Shown here: one piece after another, positions 2,523 through 18,201 of the stretch
Position numbering within the stretch: position 1 is the first letter of the stretch
Layout of the letters: each line of letters starts with the position of its first letter
Virus record (IMG/VR): IMGVR_UViG_3300025646_000213
Coordinates: 1 to 30,600 of that record
Reading direction: 5' to 3' (one strand)
Origin: a virus
Lineage: Duplodnaviria; Caudoviricetes
Length of the DNA: 30,600 nt
Made by a program: the position numbers and the translations under genes
The notes under the pieces: model-generated
Database searches by the model: none
The model's input: only the letters and a program-made list of their open reading frames with translations
What the model was told of the DNA's origin: nothing

Positions 2523-3203
2523 TTAAGCGGAAACCGTGAAACCGTATTTATCTTGTTTTGCTCGACCTTTAGCAAGTAAGCCAACAACCACATTTGATTT
2601 ATTTTTAAATCGCATGTCATGTAAATCACCATTAATAACTTTGTATTTCTTATAAAGCTTCGGTAATTTATCTTTAAAGACAACCGCGACTGGTGACTTT
2701 TTAATTAGTTTAAAAGCTTCCTTTTCATTTGTTTCGGATCGTGAAAAAGTCAGATGATAATTGCTAGGCTGATTGTCATGGATCCGATTATCTCCTTTGG
2801 TGTAATCGTAAAATGTCACTGTCGGGAAATGGTCCATTAAATTTTTGCCTTGATATAAATATTTCTCCCAAGGCAAATCAGAAGTACCATTCAAACGAAT
2901 CGCCAGTTTCATATTTTTCTTTTTAGCCCGGCGTAATAATATAGTTATATCACTATGCAGCTCAGCCAAAAATTTAGTACGATCTTTAAAAAAGGCCAGC
3001 GTTTTTCTAATTCGGGCCGACTGTACCGAAATCATCTGACCACGCCCGGCTTTATAGAGGCAGCCATCGATACACCCAGGCGAAGCCCAGGGACAAACAT
3101 TTTTGCCGCTAGTTTTATGGGGAGCTAGGTATAGGATCCCGGTTAAAACCCCGTACTTCATTGACTTGATTGTTTTCCAATTTGTATTTACTTGTAACAA
3201 CAT
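2523..3203 (-). CDS. Gene product 88 (GP88)-like Cys-cluster protein
   Basis: LYLAP...C-P-x-AS-x-GC-xxx-C, RLNGTSD, FYDYTK and NYHLTFS motifs; AAGGAAGGA RBS. Confidence 0.8.
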   Translation of the reverse strand: MLLQVNTNWKTIKSMKYGVLTGILYLAPHKTSGKNVCPWASPGCIDGCLYKAGRGQMISVQSARIRKTLAFFKDRTKFLAELHSDITILLRRAKKKNMKLAIRLNGTSDLPWEKYLYQGKNLMDHFPTVTFYDYTKGDNRIHDNQPSNYHLTFSRSETNEKEAFKLIKKSPVAVVFKDKLPKLYKKYKVINGDLHDMRFKNKSNVVVGLLAKGRAKQDKYGFTVSA

Positions 3204-3223: not shown

Positions 3224-3259
3224 ATCCCATGAATATAAGACTATAAATATAAATGTCAA
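3224..3259 (-). promoter_or_regulatory. sigma70 promoter with ATCCCATG box over the predicted start site
   Basis: Minus strand TTGACA-N16-TATATT followed directly by CATGGGAT. Confidence 0.75.
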
Positions 3260-3285
3260 CTAAAAAATTTATTGATAATTAGGAA

Positions 3286-3785
3286 CTGGGTAATTAGTAG
3301 GACCATCACCTTTCAGTGAGGCTGTAACCAATAATGCTTGCAAGTCGACTAGACAAGCATGTGCAATGGTCCAACAAATTACTATCAGTAATTATTTACG
3401 ACTGGGTCATTTGCCTCTAGCAAAAATTCTATGCACTAGCGCCTACCGTTGGATCTGGCCGACCCAGTCTTAAAAGTGACCCCGACCCAGGCTACCGGGT
3501 CGGGATCGATTAGTATGGGTCCTAACACCACTTTACTAATTCTTCTGGGGTGTCCCGGCTCGAAGCTGCGACTAGACCAGAAGTTGACCCGGGCAACAAC
3601 ATTTACCGATAGGATAGAGTTACCCGGATCCCAGACCACTAGAACCACCTGAGCGTCTCGTGTGTATACCCACGCTAGTGGTCAGGGATGGCATCGACGG
3701 TTAACTCGGTCAAAAGTCGACCGTCGACCCGTTCGTAGTCGATAAAAAACAGGAGCTATAAAAAAGTTTTAAATCGAACTACCAA
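3286..3785 (-). ncRNA. Candidate ~500-nt structured non-coding RNA (tandem hairpin array)
   Basis: No credible ORF, raised GC, about nine stems of 7-14 bp, several A-C mismatches that become G-U pairs on the minus strand, and a dedicated promoter at 3791-3818. Confidence 0.7.
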
Positions 3786-3790
3786 TTATC

Positions 3791-3818
3791 CTTTTATCAT
3801 CATGGGATTTAATGTCAA
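3791..3818 (-). promoter_or_regulatory. sigma70 promoter with ATCCCATG box, driving the non-coding region
   Basis: TTGACA-N16-TAAAAG (TGn extended); box at 3801-3808. Confidence 0.65.
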
Positions 3819-3826
3819 CAATTATT

Positions 3827-4201
3827 TTATAAATTTTTTAAAAAATTTTTTAAATTTTGCCAGTTGATCGGCTCCCGTAATACGCGAATCGGTGGATCGG
3901 CAAGAGGGTCACGGGTTGCGAGTCCCGGTTTGAAAAGTTTCAGTGCTCTCTCCTTGGGTACGGAAATCAAGATAAAAACACGCCCGTGATGTTTCAATCT
4001 GGTATAAATCCAGACCTTCTGGAAGCGAGTTAGTTTACCTCGATTTACCTTTAATTCGATCCATCCTTCAACGCCATCAATACAGTAATTTATATCAGGA
4101 ACTCCTTGAAGTGTACTTGTTTCTATTCTTTGAAAGTGCGCGTCTTTTATGTGTTTTTTTATTCTTTGATACAGTTTTGATTCGGCTTTTTTCAGTGCCA
4201 T
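3827..4201 (-). CDS. PD-(D/E)xK nuclease, VRR-NUC/Holliday-junction-resolvase-like
   Basis: E..., GVPD, WIELK and LTRFQKVW motifs. Confidence 0.8.
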   Translation of the reverse strand: MALKKAESKLYQRIKKHIKDAHFQRIETSTLQGVPDINYCIDGVEGWIELKVNRGKLTRFQKVWIYTRLKHHGRVFILISVPKERALKLFKPGLATRDPLADPPIRVLREPINWQNLKNFLKNL

Positions 4202-5119: not shown

Positions 5120-5284
5120 GGATCTACTCTACCACAAGTTTACGGTGAAGGCTATCACCGTATAAATTTTTCAGTTTCCTATAAGGTATTATATAGTAAA
5201 CATACCTCTAACACGAAAAAAAGGTAAAAAGTACCCTGAAACCAGAATAAGTTAAATAATCCTTATAGAATGCGGTTAATTTTG

Positions 5285-5385
5285 TCAGCCTAGTAGGCTG
5301 AAAGTAGGCTGAAATTCTGGGAACGGCAGCCGAAATGCGGCAACCGCCGCAGAATAGCCGCCAAATATGACCGCACTGTGGCAGA
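5285..5385. repeat. Palindrome/iteron-like cluster (candidate origin or packaging site)
   Basis: TCAGCCTA-G-TAGGCTGA (5285-5301), tandem GTAGGCTGAAA x2 (5293-5314), CGGCAGCCG and CGGCAACCG (5324-5346). Confidence 0.55.
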
Positions 5386-5503
5386 ATTACAACTAAAATA
5401 TTCCGTACACCAGAAGACCAATCAGAGTTTTCAGTATACCGATTGCGATCGGTGTAGCGATTAAAACTGCTAGTCCAACTAAAATAAACATAATCATGCA
5501 ACT

Positions 5504-5554
5504 TATTTACATGGGATAAATTAATTTGTCAAACAATATTTTTTATGTTAAATT
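5504..5554. promoter_or_regulatory. Back-to-back promoters sharing TTGTCAA, with ATCCCATG box
   Basis: Minus: TTGACA-N17-TAAATA with box at 5510-5517. Plus: TTGTCA-N17-TAAATT (TGn extended). Confidence 0.65.
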
Positions 5555-5559
5555 AAATT

Positions 5560-5778
5560 TAGTTTTTATTTCATAAAAACTTTCTCTTTAAAAACAAAAG
5601 ATCAATATGACCTAGAACAGGGGCTCCGGCCCCCGTTAACCGTGCTTCTTTGTCCTTATTGCGGGAACCAGTATTTTAGATTACAATCAACAAACTGTTT
5701 ATCTTTTATTTGTATTTCTATAAACAGTGAATTTTCCTTCATTGAGTGGGGAGCTGACTTTCAAGGTGAGCTCCTCAC
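5560..5778 (+). ncRNA. Candidate ~220-nt small RNA
   Basis: Plus-strand promoter and no credible ORF. Hairpins at 5561-5581, 5620-5633 (C-UCCG-G tetraloop) and 5746-5778 (G-U pair on the plus strand). Confidence 0.45.
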
Positions 5779-5970
5779 CTAAAATCGTTTAAATAACAAT
5801 CTCCATAACCAAGAACGAAACAAAGAAACAATTGTAAAAATTATTGCGATTTGAAAGCTTTCAAAAATCGTTGGGTGCAAGTCAAAAAACGGAAAAATGT
5901 ATAATTGAATTAAAGTGGAAAGAAGTAAACCGCTACCAACATCGATCGCAGCTTCTATAAAAGACCTCAT
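5779..5970 (-). CDS. Small two-TM membrane protein
   Basis: Two hydrophobic helices; SxxE...VSLxRSxxWR pattern common in phages. Confidence 0.8.
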   Translation of the reverse strand: MRSFIEAAIDVGSGLLLSTLIQLYIFPFFDLHPTIFESFQIAIIFTIVSLFRSWLWRLLFKRF

Positions 5971-6813: not shown

Positions 6814-7117
6814 CTTTTTTAATATTGTTTCTATATTGAATATCAAGTTTTTGCAATCGTTTTAAAAACTTTGCATTGTTATAATAAAATCTAACTTCTG
6901 TTTCATTACGTAAATCTGGTTTAAAAGATTTTAAATGATCCATAAGTTCTTTTGTTAAGTCCGCTGTGAATTGAGAATAATAACAACCACCTGTAGGTTC
7001 TATTTGATGTTGTTCTAAATAAAAATCTAAAACTTTTTGTTTTTCTTTGATGTATTCAACACGTTCTAAAAAATTTCCAATTTTTAATGTTGCTTTTAAG
7101 TCTTTAGTTTTTCTCAT
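6803..7117 (-). CDS. Hypothetical protein (104 aa)
   Basis: Short overlaps with both neighbours, in the operon orientation. Confidence 0.75.
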   Translation of the reverse strand: MRKTKDLKATLKIGNFLERVEYIKEKQKVLDFYLEQHQIEPTGGCYYSQFTADLTKELMDHLKSFKPDLRNETEVRFYYNNAKFLKRLQKLDIQYRNNIKKDAN

Positions 7118-8606
7118 ATTCTGCTTTTCCTATTGCTCTTGCGATTTCTTCTGCGATTTGCGGGACGATAGAGTTTCCCAGTGCTTTAAGTCTGTGTACC
7201 CGGCCTTGTACCCCATTAGCCACTCGACCCACGTCGGGTTCAAACTCCCACCTGCGTGGCCAGCTAATCGGTGTTTCTCTTTCGCCTTCTGATAATTCGT
7301 GTTCGGACCCGAATCTTTGTGATCCCTCGATGTTGGAGTGGGCACCATCTGCACTCCCTTGCGTTTGATCAAACTCTCTGGATTCTCTTGACCCGATGCT
7401 CTCGGTGTTGGCCATAACACTTGCTGGTGTCTCACCTGATCGTTCAAGCTTATTGGCATCTTCTTCTCTAATTTCATTTTCATTCTCTCCTCCGATGCTG
7501 GCCCCCTGTCGCAATGTGCGTCTGGTGTTCTCCACAGTTTTATCTCTTGTTTCCATTCTATTGAGTGAAGTGTTGTCATCAAGTCGTCGTATTTGATTGT
7601 CTTCAGATGCTTTTTGATTTTGTTCCAATCTTCTATTGATGGATGACTGAATCCTGCTTTGTCCCTCCTGAACCAGTGTTCGACTGTCGTCTTCTTGATT
7701 CCAGTTTTTTCGTGTAACTCTTTGACTGACGTCTGCTCTCTCATGTAGTTTACGAATTCCTGTTGTTTTGGTAAATTCTTTCTCGTTACCATTTCGTAGT
7801 CCTTGTATTTTTCCATCAATTCGGGATTGTTCATTATCTCTTCGACCATTACTTCGTCCGCTAGAGATATCTGTATTCTCGCTCCCGTTGATCTGAGATT
7901 TTTCCCTTGGACTAATTTGGTTGCGTGTTTCAATGAGTCCTCTTTCGTGTCCATTGTTGTTGGTGTTCTCCATAACTTCATTGTCTCTGGGTCTACTTGT
8001 TCTCTCAGATTCGATGGTCTGGTTCTCCCCTTCCGTTGACCGTGCATCATTTTGAGTGTGCCTTCCTTTGATCTCGGAGGCAAGTGATCCATAGTGTTTG
8101 GAGTGGCCCACAATCCAGATTCTTTCCCTTTGGTGGGGTGCACCGACGCCCGCAGCTGGAATATTAAACGGTTGTACTTGGTAGCCTTGGTTCTCCAAAT
8201 CAGAGCACACACGTTCGAAGACCACGCCGTCTTGGATGTTAACAATTCCTCGCACATTCTCTGCAACAACCCACCTTGGTTGCACTTCGGTAATAACTCG
8301 AAACATTTCTGGCCAGAGATATCGATCGTCATTGGTTCCTTTTTGTTTTCCGGCAACACTGTACGGCTGGCAGGGGAAACCACCGCAGACAATATCAATT
8401 CTTCCATGTGCTTCTTCAAGATCTTTCCCTTTGAGGTTTTTAATGTCATTATATATCTTAACACCTTTCCAATGTTTTTGCAGCAACTGTTTGCAATATT
8501 CATCTACTTCACAAAATGCTACGGTTTCATACAATCCTGTGTTTTCAAATCCGAGGCTAAATCCTCCAATCCCAGAAAACAAATCAAGAATTTTTAGTTT
8601 TCTCAT
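7104..8606 (-). CDS. C5 cytosine DNA methyltransferase, catalytic (alpha) polypeptide
   Basis: Motifs I (DLFSGIGG), IV (GGFPCQ), VI (ENV), VIII (QRERIW) and X (LKALGNSIVP) are present. The middle is a long polar stretch with no motif IX. Confidence 0.92.
   Translation of the reverse strand: MRKLKILDLFSGIGGFSLGFENTGLYETVAFCEVDEYCKQLLQKHWKGVKIYNDIKNLKGKDLEEAHGRIDIVCGGFPCQPYSVAGKQKGTNDDRYLWPEMFRVITEVQPRWVVAENVRGIVNIQDGVVFERVCSDLENQGYQVQPFNIPAAGVGAPHQRERIWIVGHSKHYGSLASEIKGRHTQNDARSTEGENQTIESERTSRPRDNEVMENTNNNGHERGLIETRNQISPREKSQINGSENTDISSGRSNGRRDNEQSRIDGKIQGLRNGNEKEFTKTTGIRKLHERADVSQRVTRKNWNQEDDSRTLVQEGQSRIQSSINRRLEQNQKASEDNQIRRLDDNTSLNRMETRDKTVENTRRTLRQGASIGGENENEIREEDANKLERSGETPASVMANTESIGSRESREFDQTQGSADGAHSNIEGSQRFGSEHELSEGERETPISWPRRWEFEPDVGRVANGVQGRVHRLKALGNSIVPQIAEEIARAIGKAEYEKN
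7130..8503 (-). CDS. Nested alternative-frame methyltransferase polypeptide (beta; TRD modules plus motif IX), start uncertain
   Basis: 457-codon ORF inside the MTase gene, with five (L/M)(W/V)xTP modules and motif IX-like LNPTWVEWLMGY. Parallels M.EcoHK31I alpha/beta. Confidence 0.8.
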   Translation of the reverse strand: MNIANSCCKNIGKVLRYIMTLKTSKGKILKKHMEELILSAVVSPASRTVLPENKKEPMTIDISGQKCFELLPKCNQGGLLQRMCEELLTSKTAWSSNVCALIWRTKATKYNRLIFQLRASVHPTKGKESGLWATPNTMDHLPPRSKEGTLKMMHGQRKGRTRPSNLREQVDPETMKLWRTPTTMDTKEDSLKHATKLVQGKNLRSTGARIQISLADEVMVEEIMNNPELMEKYKDYEMVTRKNLPKQQEFVNYMREQTSVKELHEKTGIKKTTVEHWFRRDKAGFSHPSIEDWNKIKKHLKTIKYDDLMTTLHSIEWKQEIKLWRTPDAHCDRGPASEERMKMKLEKKMPISLNDQVRHQQVLWPTPRASGQENPESLIKRKGVQMVPTPTSRDHKDSGPNTNYQKAKEKHRLAGHAGGSLNPTWVEWLMGYKAGYTDLKHWETLSSRKSQKKSQEQ

Positions 8607-8973
8607 CGAAATATTTTATAATTTTATTTGCTGTAATAATTTTACTTTGTTGTTTCATGTAAGGCAAAATCATTTTAAGTAATTCATAAGCTTTGCTTCC
8701 ACGAATATTCCACATTAATTGAGGCTTTGATAGTTTCCCGTTAACCGTAACTCGTGGGGGTCTTTCAATTAACGTACCAAGTCCAAAGGTTTGATGAAGT
8801 CGTTGTAAGATTCCGAAATCCGTATTACAAACTTCGATTCGATGCGTATGCGTTGGATAAGCAACTCCTCGACCGTTTTTCTTTAATCGACAAACGGATT
8901 CAATATAACCTTCGCCATCAATGAACCCTGCAGTGTAAGCTTTATCACTTGTTTTTATTCCTTCGCTGATCAT
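8584..8973 (-). CDS. Free-standing single-motif LAGLIDADG homing endonuclease
   Basis: AYTAGFIDGEGYI motif, IEVCNTD, FGLGT and ILPYM...K C-terminus. Confidence 0.85.
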   Translation of the reverse strand: MISEGIKTSDKAYTAGFIDGEGYIESVCRLKKNGRGVAYPTHTHRIEVCNTDFGILQRLHQTFGLGTLIERPPRVTVNGKLSKPQLMWNIRGSKAYELLKMILPYMKQQSKIITANKIIKYFDEKTKNS

Positions 8974-9274
8974 AAATCTTCCTCCATTTTAAATACTCAA
9001 TTTGTTTTTTCGTAAATTTAATTTTTCCACTTTCAAGCATTGTAAAATACTTATCACTAATATACTCAGGTTCAAATAAAGAGCAATAACAAACGTAATC
9101 AAAGTCTTCACTTTTTTCAACAAACCACATGTGAGCTTCGTTTTTATAAACGATTAAAGGACGTTCGAGTCCTCGATACAATACATCTTCAAAAGCTTTT
9201 GATAAAACTGCGCGCCAAAGTTTAACTTCAGGTTGAAGTTCTTCTGGATCTTTTTCGTTTTTTAAATAATCCAT
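8945..9274 (-). CDS. Conserved-looking hypothetical phage protein (LWRAVL...WF...DF..VC)
   Basis: AAGGAG RBS; motif pattern recurrent in phage proteins. Confidence 0.85.
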   Translation of the reverse strand: MDYLKNEKDPEELQPEVKLWRAVLSKAFEDVLYRGLERPLIVYKNEAHMWFVEKSEDFDYVCYCSLFEPEYISDKYFTMLESGKIKFTKKQIEYLKWRKIYDQRRNKNK

Positions 9275-9285
9275 TATAGCTCCTT

Positions 9286-9350
9286 AAAATGAGTGACCAG
9301 GGGAAGATCGATTGGTAGTTCGAAAGTGTGGAAAACTGGCCACTCATTTT
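9286..9350 (-). promoter_or_regulatory. Intergenic 15-bp stem with 35-nt loop abutting an RBS
   Basis: AAAATGAGTGACCAG / CTGGCCACTCATTTT; the single mismatch is G-U on the minus strand. Confidence 0.6.
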
Positions 9351-10307: not shown

Positions 10308-10365
10308 ATCCCATGATAATATTTTTTTTATATCTATTGTCAAGCAATAAAATAACTCGTAAGGT
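10308..10365. promoter_or_regulatory. Back-to-back promoters sharing TTGTCAA, with ATCCCATG box
   Basis: Minus: TTGACA-N16-TATTAT-CATGGGAT. Plus: TTGTCA-N17-TAAGGT. Confidence 0.65.
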
Positions 10366-17389: not shown

Positions 17390-18201
17390 TAAAATGGCTG
17401 TTTTTCATTCGCTACGTTTTGGGAAGCTGTAGCCTCTGCTTCTTCAGATTGAACTTTAACATCGCCACCTTTTATAGTCTCATAAAATTGTTTTCCAATT
17501 TTATAAACATCGGCTGTGACATCACCATGATGATTAATCACAAAACCTGGCCAAGAATAAGTTTTATTTCTTTCCATAATAGAACTCATTTTATAAACTT
17601 GAGACCATCTAGGTAAATCAACTTTTTGACCGTTGATGTCCCTTCTCATGTTCATAATCATTGCATTCCATTGTTTGGATTTCTTGAACTGGGTTTTACT
17701 CATGTAAACAACTGCTTTCTCAGCTACCTTCATGTTTTCGTCTAATATTAAAACATAATGTTCACCATTAGCTTCTAAGACGTTTCCATTACCCAATACA
17801 TCTTTCGATCCTTGTCTAGTAGTTTGATCTTTAATTGGATGATCGGATGGATATTCAGCTACAGGACCAGCAGAAGTATTATTCATGTCCCATTCTTTGT
17901 ACGTTAATTTATAATAACACGGAACTACAAATAACCCTTGTCCACCATCGTATAATGTTTTGGTAACACTATTAATAAACATAAGGGGTCTTGCAGAGTC
18001 AATGTAATCTGAACTACCTGGTTGACACTCAGGAGAAGTACTTGCCAGTAGTTTTAATCTTGGCAAAGTAACATCTCTGTCAGTGATGTTATCATGTCCT
18101 AAGTCAGCATCTTGAATTATTAGACTAGCTAATTCTCCTCCAGACTGTTTCTTAACGACATTTGTTTGTTGTGTTGCGTTTTGCTGTTTTGCGTTTTGCA
18201 T
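17389..18201 (-). CDS. Putative single-stranded DNA-binding protein
   Basis: Position in the replication operon, LPRLKLL motif, acidic tail ending in PF. Confidence 0.6.
   Translation of the reverse strand: MQNAKQQNATQQTNVVKKQSGGELASLIIQDADLGHDNITDRDVTLPRLKLLASTSPECQPGSSDYIDSARPLMFINSVTKTLYDGGQGLFVVPCYYKLTYKEWDMNNTSAGPVAEYPSDHPIKDQTTRQGSKDVLGNGNVLEANGEHYVLILDENMKVAEKAVVYMSKTQFKKSKQWNAMIMNMRRDINGQKVDLPRWSQVYKMSSIMERNKTYSWPGFVINHHGDVTADVYKIGKQFYETIKGGDVKVQSEEAEATASQNVANEKQPF

Follow-up and report, generated by a model that had tools for sequence, protein, structure and literature searches.

In the 30,600-nt stretch of phage DNA (Caudoviricetes) analysed here, called the window, the minus strand between a nuclease gene and a GP88-family gene appears to encode a real structured RNA, composed of an antisense head with named predicted targets and, behind it, a series of cassettes that can be exchanged. 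The array is strongly structured and modular, shares cassettes with other phage lineages and is complementary to translation start sites of the same phage. The reading that we prefer, with a probability of about 55%, is that the first hairpin (H0) is antisense to the ribosome-binding sites (RBS) of groES and of a gene for a 109-aa protein and would block their translation at an early stage of infection, and that the swapped cassettes would, less securely, link copies of the RNA.

The array falls among the small genes that separate terS from terL, with a VRR-NUC-like nuclease gene upstream (3827..4201, minus strand; score under the Pfam cut-off) and a GP88-family gene downstream (2523..3203, minus strand; own promoter at 3259). 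The DNA polymerase of the phage is 60% identical to that of pelagiphage HTVC023P and 50% identical to that of HTVC027P. All nine stems named in the initial annotation were recovered in place with 86 Watson-Crick pairs and 3 U.U mismatches; its list was incomplete, lacking the conserved 5' hairpin at 3735-3786, the module whose predicted function is the clearest. Comparison with dinucleotide-shuffled controls had been proposed there as a check, and the array folded well beyond them: the most stable minus-strand fold reached -194.5 kcal/mol against -151 ± 6.5 kcal/mol for 100 shuffles (z -6.7), the plus strand was on par (z -6.8), and the region ranked 1 in stability among 62 segments of 500 nt. 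The array is also GC-richer than its surroundings, as had been noted (0.48 versus 0.34 for the whole window), and its longest frame without a stop is 81 codons. Palindromes are dense here (9 per 500 nt), yet not at their densest in the window. Rfam searches of the window at the gathering cut-off and at an E-value of 10 gave nothing credible, and neither ARAGORN nor Rfam returned a tRNA or tmRNA in the array, in agreement with the initial annotation, which had not recognised it as tRNA, tmRNA, RNase P or an intron; blastn against 50,697 phage records gave a single chance match. The other long gene-poor stretch of the window (5120-5780) contains several 150-nt segments with a fold z of about -5, plus a ATCCCATG motif.

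A putative early promoter was located on the minus strand at 3791..3818, with a perfect -35 element (3813-3818), a ATCCCATG motif (3801-3808) and a weak extended -10 element (3791-3796). Of the TTGACA promoter claimed initially, the -35 element stood and the promoter region is kept in relatives, whereas the -10 element lacks its final T and the site is absent from the consensus-scan list. The stem mismatches had been taken to point to the minus strand, and this was supported, with 3 pairs being G-U on the minus strand and 0 on the plus strand. In the wider family (159 cluster representatives), isolated non-Watson-Crick stem pairs were G-U in 80 cases, A-C in 6 and other in 30, counted only at positions outside those used for cassette selection. 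A promoter-like site was present upstream on the same strand in 110 of 154 arrays, and one pointing in from the opposite side in 6 of 160. At the 3' end of the array a U-tract terminator was not found, and only H6 was flagged as terminator-like. On the minus strand of the window, the ATCCCATG / CATGGGAT motif occurs at 3224-3231, 1807-1814, 75-82, 5510-5517 and 10308-10315 in addition to 3801-3808; it lies in or adjoining early-type promoters, is found in HTVC023P too, and is a candidate operator or activator site.

All four RNA libraries analysed (4/4, from 4 studies) yielded contigs that align to 3405-3659 with 0-6 differences and whose loose ends coincide with cassette boundaries; these contigs carry no strand, ends or level, may include DNA, and in part belong to other phages sharing a cassette. 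RNA accounted for 18 of the 22 sequencing runs listed, only 2 being above a small share, and read depth is unable to rank genes because the runs had been selected for the array stretch. In run X1, positions 3614-3764 were uncovered, most of H0 and H1 included, although contigs cannot demonstrate absence.

Protein and pattern scans gave close relatives that share the promoter region and the first two hairpins; pattern-scan matches that had neither promoter nor H1 context were discarded (10 of 21 viral, 20 of 36 metagenome). The initial annotation had described one fixed 500-nt RNA, and this did not hold: behind a conserved two-hairpin head, composed of H0 (3735..3786) and H1 (3690..3732), seven architectures with 2 to about 9 hairpins were found, in which whole hairpins are swapped, inserted or missing at hairpin boundaries. 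What survives of the proposed stand-alone non-coding RNA is the structure, the minus strand, the early-type promoter and the pair-preserving changes. On the minus strand of the window the head is followed by cassette H2a (3628..3689; family-A frame CCC-U-G / C-U-GGG with a U.U mismatch, a loop that carries the palindrome GUAUAC (3664-3669), 3 alleles at this slot in relatives), cassette H3 (3589..3627; 4 alleles with the stem retained, loop self-complementary only via G-U in the window), and hairpins H4 (3542..3583; common to the six long architectures), H5 (3509..3540) and H6 (3478..3507). Then come cassette H7a (3395..3474), with 94% identity over 64 nt to a cassette that sits in another frame in locus L375, and cassette H8a (3290..3382), which has a family-B frame with two U.U mismatches, a loop palindrome AGUCGACU around 3344-3349 and a near copy in locus L423. 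In 6/7 architectures the array leads directly into an RBS and an ORF. The window type has lost this 84-aa ORF, which stands behind the array in relatives, except for its final codons (3269..3289, minus strand), which meet H8a at a short stretch of shared sequence; the last cassette has replaced the ORF, and the statement that the array is not simply a leader is valid for this strain type and not for the six other architectures.

Pair-preserving changes among homologues, which had been suggested as a test, were found both in the head and in relatives of H7a and H8a. In an alignment of 8 head sequences with 19 pairs, one-sided changes affected 4 pairs, each gaining or losing a G-U, and a two-sided change affected 1; this covariation is modest evidence because the sequences are related. 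H7a and H8a differ from their counterparts in L375 and L423 by 2 and 3 two-sided stem changes, respectively, and both H8a U.U mismatches are retained. We showed from sequence that the locus is a linear chain of RNA modules, folded by prediction, which phage lineages appear to trade in the manner of gene cassettes.

For the wider family, seed searches with the closing stem of an allele from a relative, the H8a frame and a third variant gave 52, 40 and 121 viral loci, respectively (about 300 estimated for the last). From 219 loci, 273 distinct oriented cassettes were extracted and grouped into 159 clusters, which are greedy and without phylogenetic independence. None of the 219 loci had frames on both strands, and identical cargo was found inside different frames. 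The H8a and L423 cassettes are about 88-93% identical, the flanks of the H7a and H8a copies are unrelated, and the L375 and L423 arrays are HTVC027P-like; likewise, the extra cassette of a close relative (L125) was found again in L304. Horizontal exchange of cassettes would be the simplest reading of these matches. H0, H1, H2a and H3-H6 had no homologue above null among 197 distant arrays. HTVC027P itself carries an unannotated array at 17,700-18,180 of MN698241. The distribution is patchy, with frames in 0/74 distant VRR-NUC and 1/78 distant GP88 loci within the fetched flanks, and the earlier tie of the array to the flanking nuclease and GP88 genes was lost accordingly. The frame pattern gave 1 match in 185,579 prokaryote genomes, in an actinobacterial MAG.

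Several related loci were observed along the way. HTVC023P has, at the syntenic site between promoter and GP88 (L041, 15185-15305), a structured leader of about 110 nt with no Rfam match. In a separate lineage (L081, 3500-3780, and L099), the VRR-NUC gene is followed by a first hairpin that is conserved and by cassettes that vary. The arrays of L202, L439 and L368 share at their 5' ends a recurring first module that resembles an H-type pseudoknot, as judged by eye. A frequent non-palindromic cargo, GGCAAA...GGACGUAAAGCC (L297, L324 and L326), has no Rfam match at E 1 and presumably resembles a stem of c-di-GMP-I riboswitches.

H0 is predicted to be an antisense module with two arms, arm A (3774-3786) and an anti-RBS loop arm (3744-3761). 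For groES matching, a 47-kb contig of the same phage (G006), longer than the window, was used, in which groES (product 51% identical to HTVC027P GroES) is followed by homologues of gp56, gp57, gp58 and the capsid gene. The H0 loop arm forms an 18-nt perfect antisense match with the groES RBS; 0 of 300 array shuffles attained such a match, and the groES start ranked 1 among 53 starts in G006. In another contig (G001) the orthologous site ranked 1 among 29, and a synonymous A>G change in the target is offset by U>C in the RNA; the 13-nt match there was equalled by 26 of 300 shuffles and is alone not significant. GGAGCT sites stand at 6 of 42 non-early versus 0 of 5 early plus-strand starts. The groES sites of HTVC027P and HTVC023P had no equivalent H0 match (7 nt only).

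The second predicted target was obtained by self-search of the window. It is the ORF of a 109-aa phage protein with no family assigned (8945..9274, minus strand), in whose leader the two H0 arms pair at two sites 26 nt apart over 13 nt and 11 nt. Site A (9311-9323) is contained in the loop of a conserved leader hairpin (9291..9345, minus strand), and site B (9274..9284, minus strand) covers the RBS and the first base of the ORF. By plain duplex energy (-24.3) this leader falls outside the best 12 of 2973 segments. In 3/3 sister-lineage contigs a C>U change in the target is offset by G>A in the RNA and the leader hairpin is retained with altered stems, with 9-10 pairs at site A and 7 at site B. 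H0 covariation amounts to one matched change for each target; GroES is 80% identical between the lineages compared, and unmatched changes shrink the duplexes from 18 to 17 or 13 nt, from 13 to 10 or 9 nt and from 11 to 7 nt. On this complementarity, H0 probably blocks translation of its targets. A LAGLIDADG endonuclease gene (8584-8973) overlaps the end of the 109-aa gene, and translational coupling may therefore be possible. A distant homologue of the 109-aa gene (L460, 60-250) keeps a similar leader hairpin and a GGAGCUA site, with no array after VRR-NUC there.

Self-complementary sequences are in excess in the cargos of the wider family. Palindromes of at least 6 nt were detected in 99 of 159 cargos (60 ± 6 in shuffles) and those of at least 8 nt in 56 (17.6 ± 3.8 in shuffles), with odd-centred and mirror symmetry controls at chance level; the remaining 60/159 cargos have no 6-nt palindrome. 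Palindromic hexamers were less paired than other hexamers (0.38 versus 0.52). When homologous cargos with multiple changes were compared, 16 of 29 pairs were still palindromic, representing 12 families (chance about 7% for two changes), and in 10 of the 16 the changes lie at inner positions that are unable to pair within one hairpin. At least 4 of 12 'broken' multi-change pairs have the same sites in shifted register and were kept in the count. Single changes (n = 12) were G-U tolerant in 4 cases and broke the palindrome in 8. These palindrome-preserving changes suggest pairing between two RNA copies, with template-switch mutation being an alternative source of palindromes. Orthogonality within arrays was absent, 3 of 82 pairs sharing a hexamer against 4.0 ± 1.8 expected. 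In the window itself, 4 of nine loops are self-complementary (p 0.67 versus shuffles), and the only two exposed Watson-Crick palindromes containing G or C are those at 3664-3669 and 3344-3349. Because its own loops match shuffles, self-pairing of the window RNA rests on the family membership of H2a and H8a.

In the mechanism that we propose, host RNA polymerase would start near 3784-3786 and H0 would open through strand exchange. The H0 loop arm would then cover ribosome sites of the AGGAGCU type, groES being the best and the gp56 and gp57 homologues being covered as well, so that the chaperone-capsid operon would be held back until late mRNA exceeds H0 RNA and head assembly would be delayed. 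Cassettes would move by recombination, for which the closing stems that they share and short AT-rich junctions would serve as sites. Palindromic loops would give homodimer kisses, with low-valency assembly in the window (2 Watson-Crick and 2 wobble sites) and assembly of higher valency in longer arrays. A further version, in which the palindromic loops form a multivalent RNA network or condensate inside infected cells and, in this lineage, the antisense head recruits groES-capsid mRNA to it, timing head assembly, can be entertained only tentatively.

Other functions of the cassettes were considered. They could form a library of decoy or aptamer RNAs for host proteins or metabolites, in which palindromes help to present a double-stranded ligand and H0 is possibly antisense. 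Such a library would fit the roughly 159 cargo clusters, in which unpaired sequence is conserved, the rapid turnover in close relatives with exchange across lineages, and the conserved U.U mismatches that may resemble a protein-binding mark; since the palindromes are free to vary in sequence with their symmetry retained, and Flavobacterium-1 was the only Rfam match in 20 array loci with no other aptamer, we consider it rather doubtful. Unlikely, in our estimate, is a long 5' leader that stabilises or processes an early transcript and carries near-neutral passenger cassettes acquired via recombination, with palindromes made by template switching. That most architectures run straight into a gene (the shortest being two hairpins), that the 3' end has no U-tract terminator and that frames are missing from most distant syntenic loci would all be expected of it; however, unpaired cargo sequence is about 90% conserved between lineages, the window strain type retained its array despite losing the downstream ORF, and the H0 matches would be left unexplained.

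The hairpins and palindromes might also act as DNA, serving as an origin, as a signal for packaging or injection, or as decoy restriction sites close to terS. The location of the array, with terS on one side and terL on the other in phages of this type, the equally good folding of both strands and the resemblance of 6-nt palindromes to restriction sites are consistent with this, but the 80:6 ratio of G-U to A-C on one strand, the restriction of the four one-sided head changes to G-U, the array orientation that tracks promoters and the contigs in RNA libraries argue against it and make it very unlikely. The initial annotation had further raised guide RNAs; on this reading the loops would have been acquired as spacers against phage or host genes. 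Variable cargo enclosed by repeat-like frames recalls CRISPR/TIGR-like guide arrays, in which spacers match target genomes; unlike these, the cargos had no excess of matches to phage ORFs (14-nt matches in 0.9 Mb, phage ORFs only, for 21/159 cargos versus 23.5 ± 4.0 in shuffles) and are themselves structured and conserved, so that we give this idea hardly any credence.

The preferred reading, an antisense head with exchangeable cassettes, has partial parallels among known systems. In phages P1 and P7, loops of the c4 antisense RNA are described as pairing around the RBS of a phage mRNA that is encoded at another place in the genome (PMC12197685). H0 is like c4 in having a loop complementary to the target RBS and in its predicted two-site pairing at the 109-aa leader, and unlike it in having no Rfam C4 match and a chaperone-capsid operon as predicted target instead of an antirepressor; it would be an analogue, not a member. 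Phages of this type are described as lytic (PMC12753301). On its own H0 would add one more member to a known kind, as a well-defined and testable candidate for late genes timed by an RNA in a marine phage that is lytic. For assembly, ROOL, GOLLD, OLE and manA are reported as natural RNAs that oligomerise via kissing loops or palindromic pairing (PMC12990946; 10.64898/2026.07.01.735769). These are single conserved folds, whereas in the window independent modules that can replace one another are strung in a linear chain, which matches no Rfam family and whose assembly is predicted. Engineered RNA nanostars are described with palindromic kissing loops, three arms being enough for condensation (PMC11289419). 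Like them the array has consecutive stems capped by 6-nt self-complementary loops; unlike them (artificial, with identical loops per molecule) its loops differ and the palindrome occurs in some cassettes only. PeSL cassettes of T4-type phages are described as non-coding repeats that lie in a variable early region and mediate recombinational shuffling (PMC2839356); they are promoter and terminator units moving genes, whereas the array moves structured RNA behind one upstream promoter.

One module of the array family has an Rfam entry. Flavobacterium-1 (RF02976) was detected among the modules of the HTVC027P array (90 bits), in L192 and in 5 of 20 loci tested, and its covariance model had no match in the window array; the Rfam entry is confined to this module and describes neither the array nor the exchange of cassettes. 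The motif is unnamed in the main text of PMC5737381, and this orphan gains a context from the array family. In the available part of PMC12753301, non-coding terms were not found, and high expression at 6-9 h is given for HTVC027P gp33 and gp34, the genes directly behind its array. No description of such a swappable array was found in the literature within reach, which took in few subscription papers and not the supplement of Weinberg 2017. As seen from the sequence, the architecture of the cassette array would be what is new, with a mechanism that is only predicted. Since cultured HTVC027P carries an array and has public infection RNA-seq under BioProject PRJNA1253180 (PMC12753301), the idea is testable now. 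Elsewhere in the window, the cytosine methyltransferase ORF at 7104-8606 was observed to hold a 457-aa ORF nested in another frame (7130-8503).
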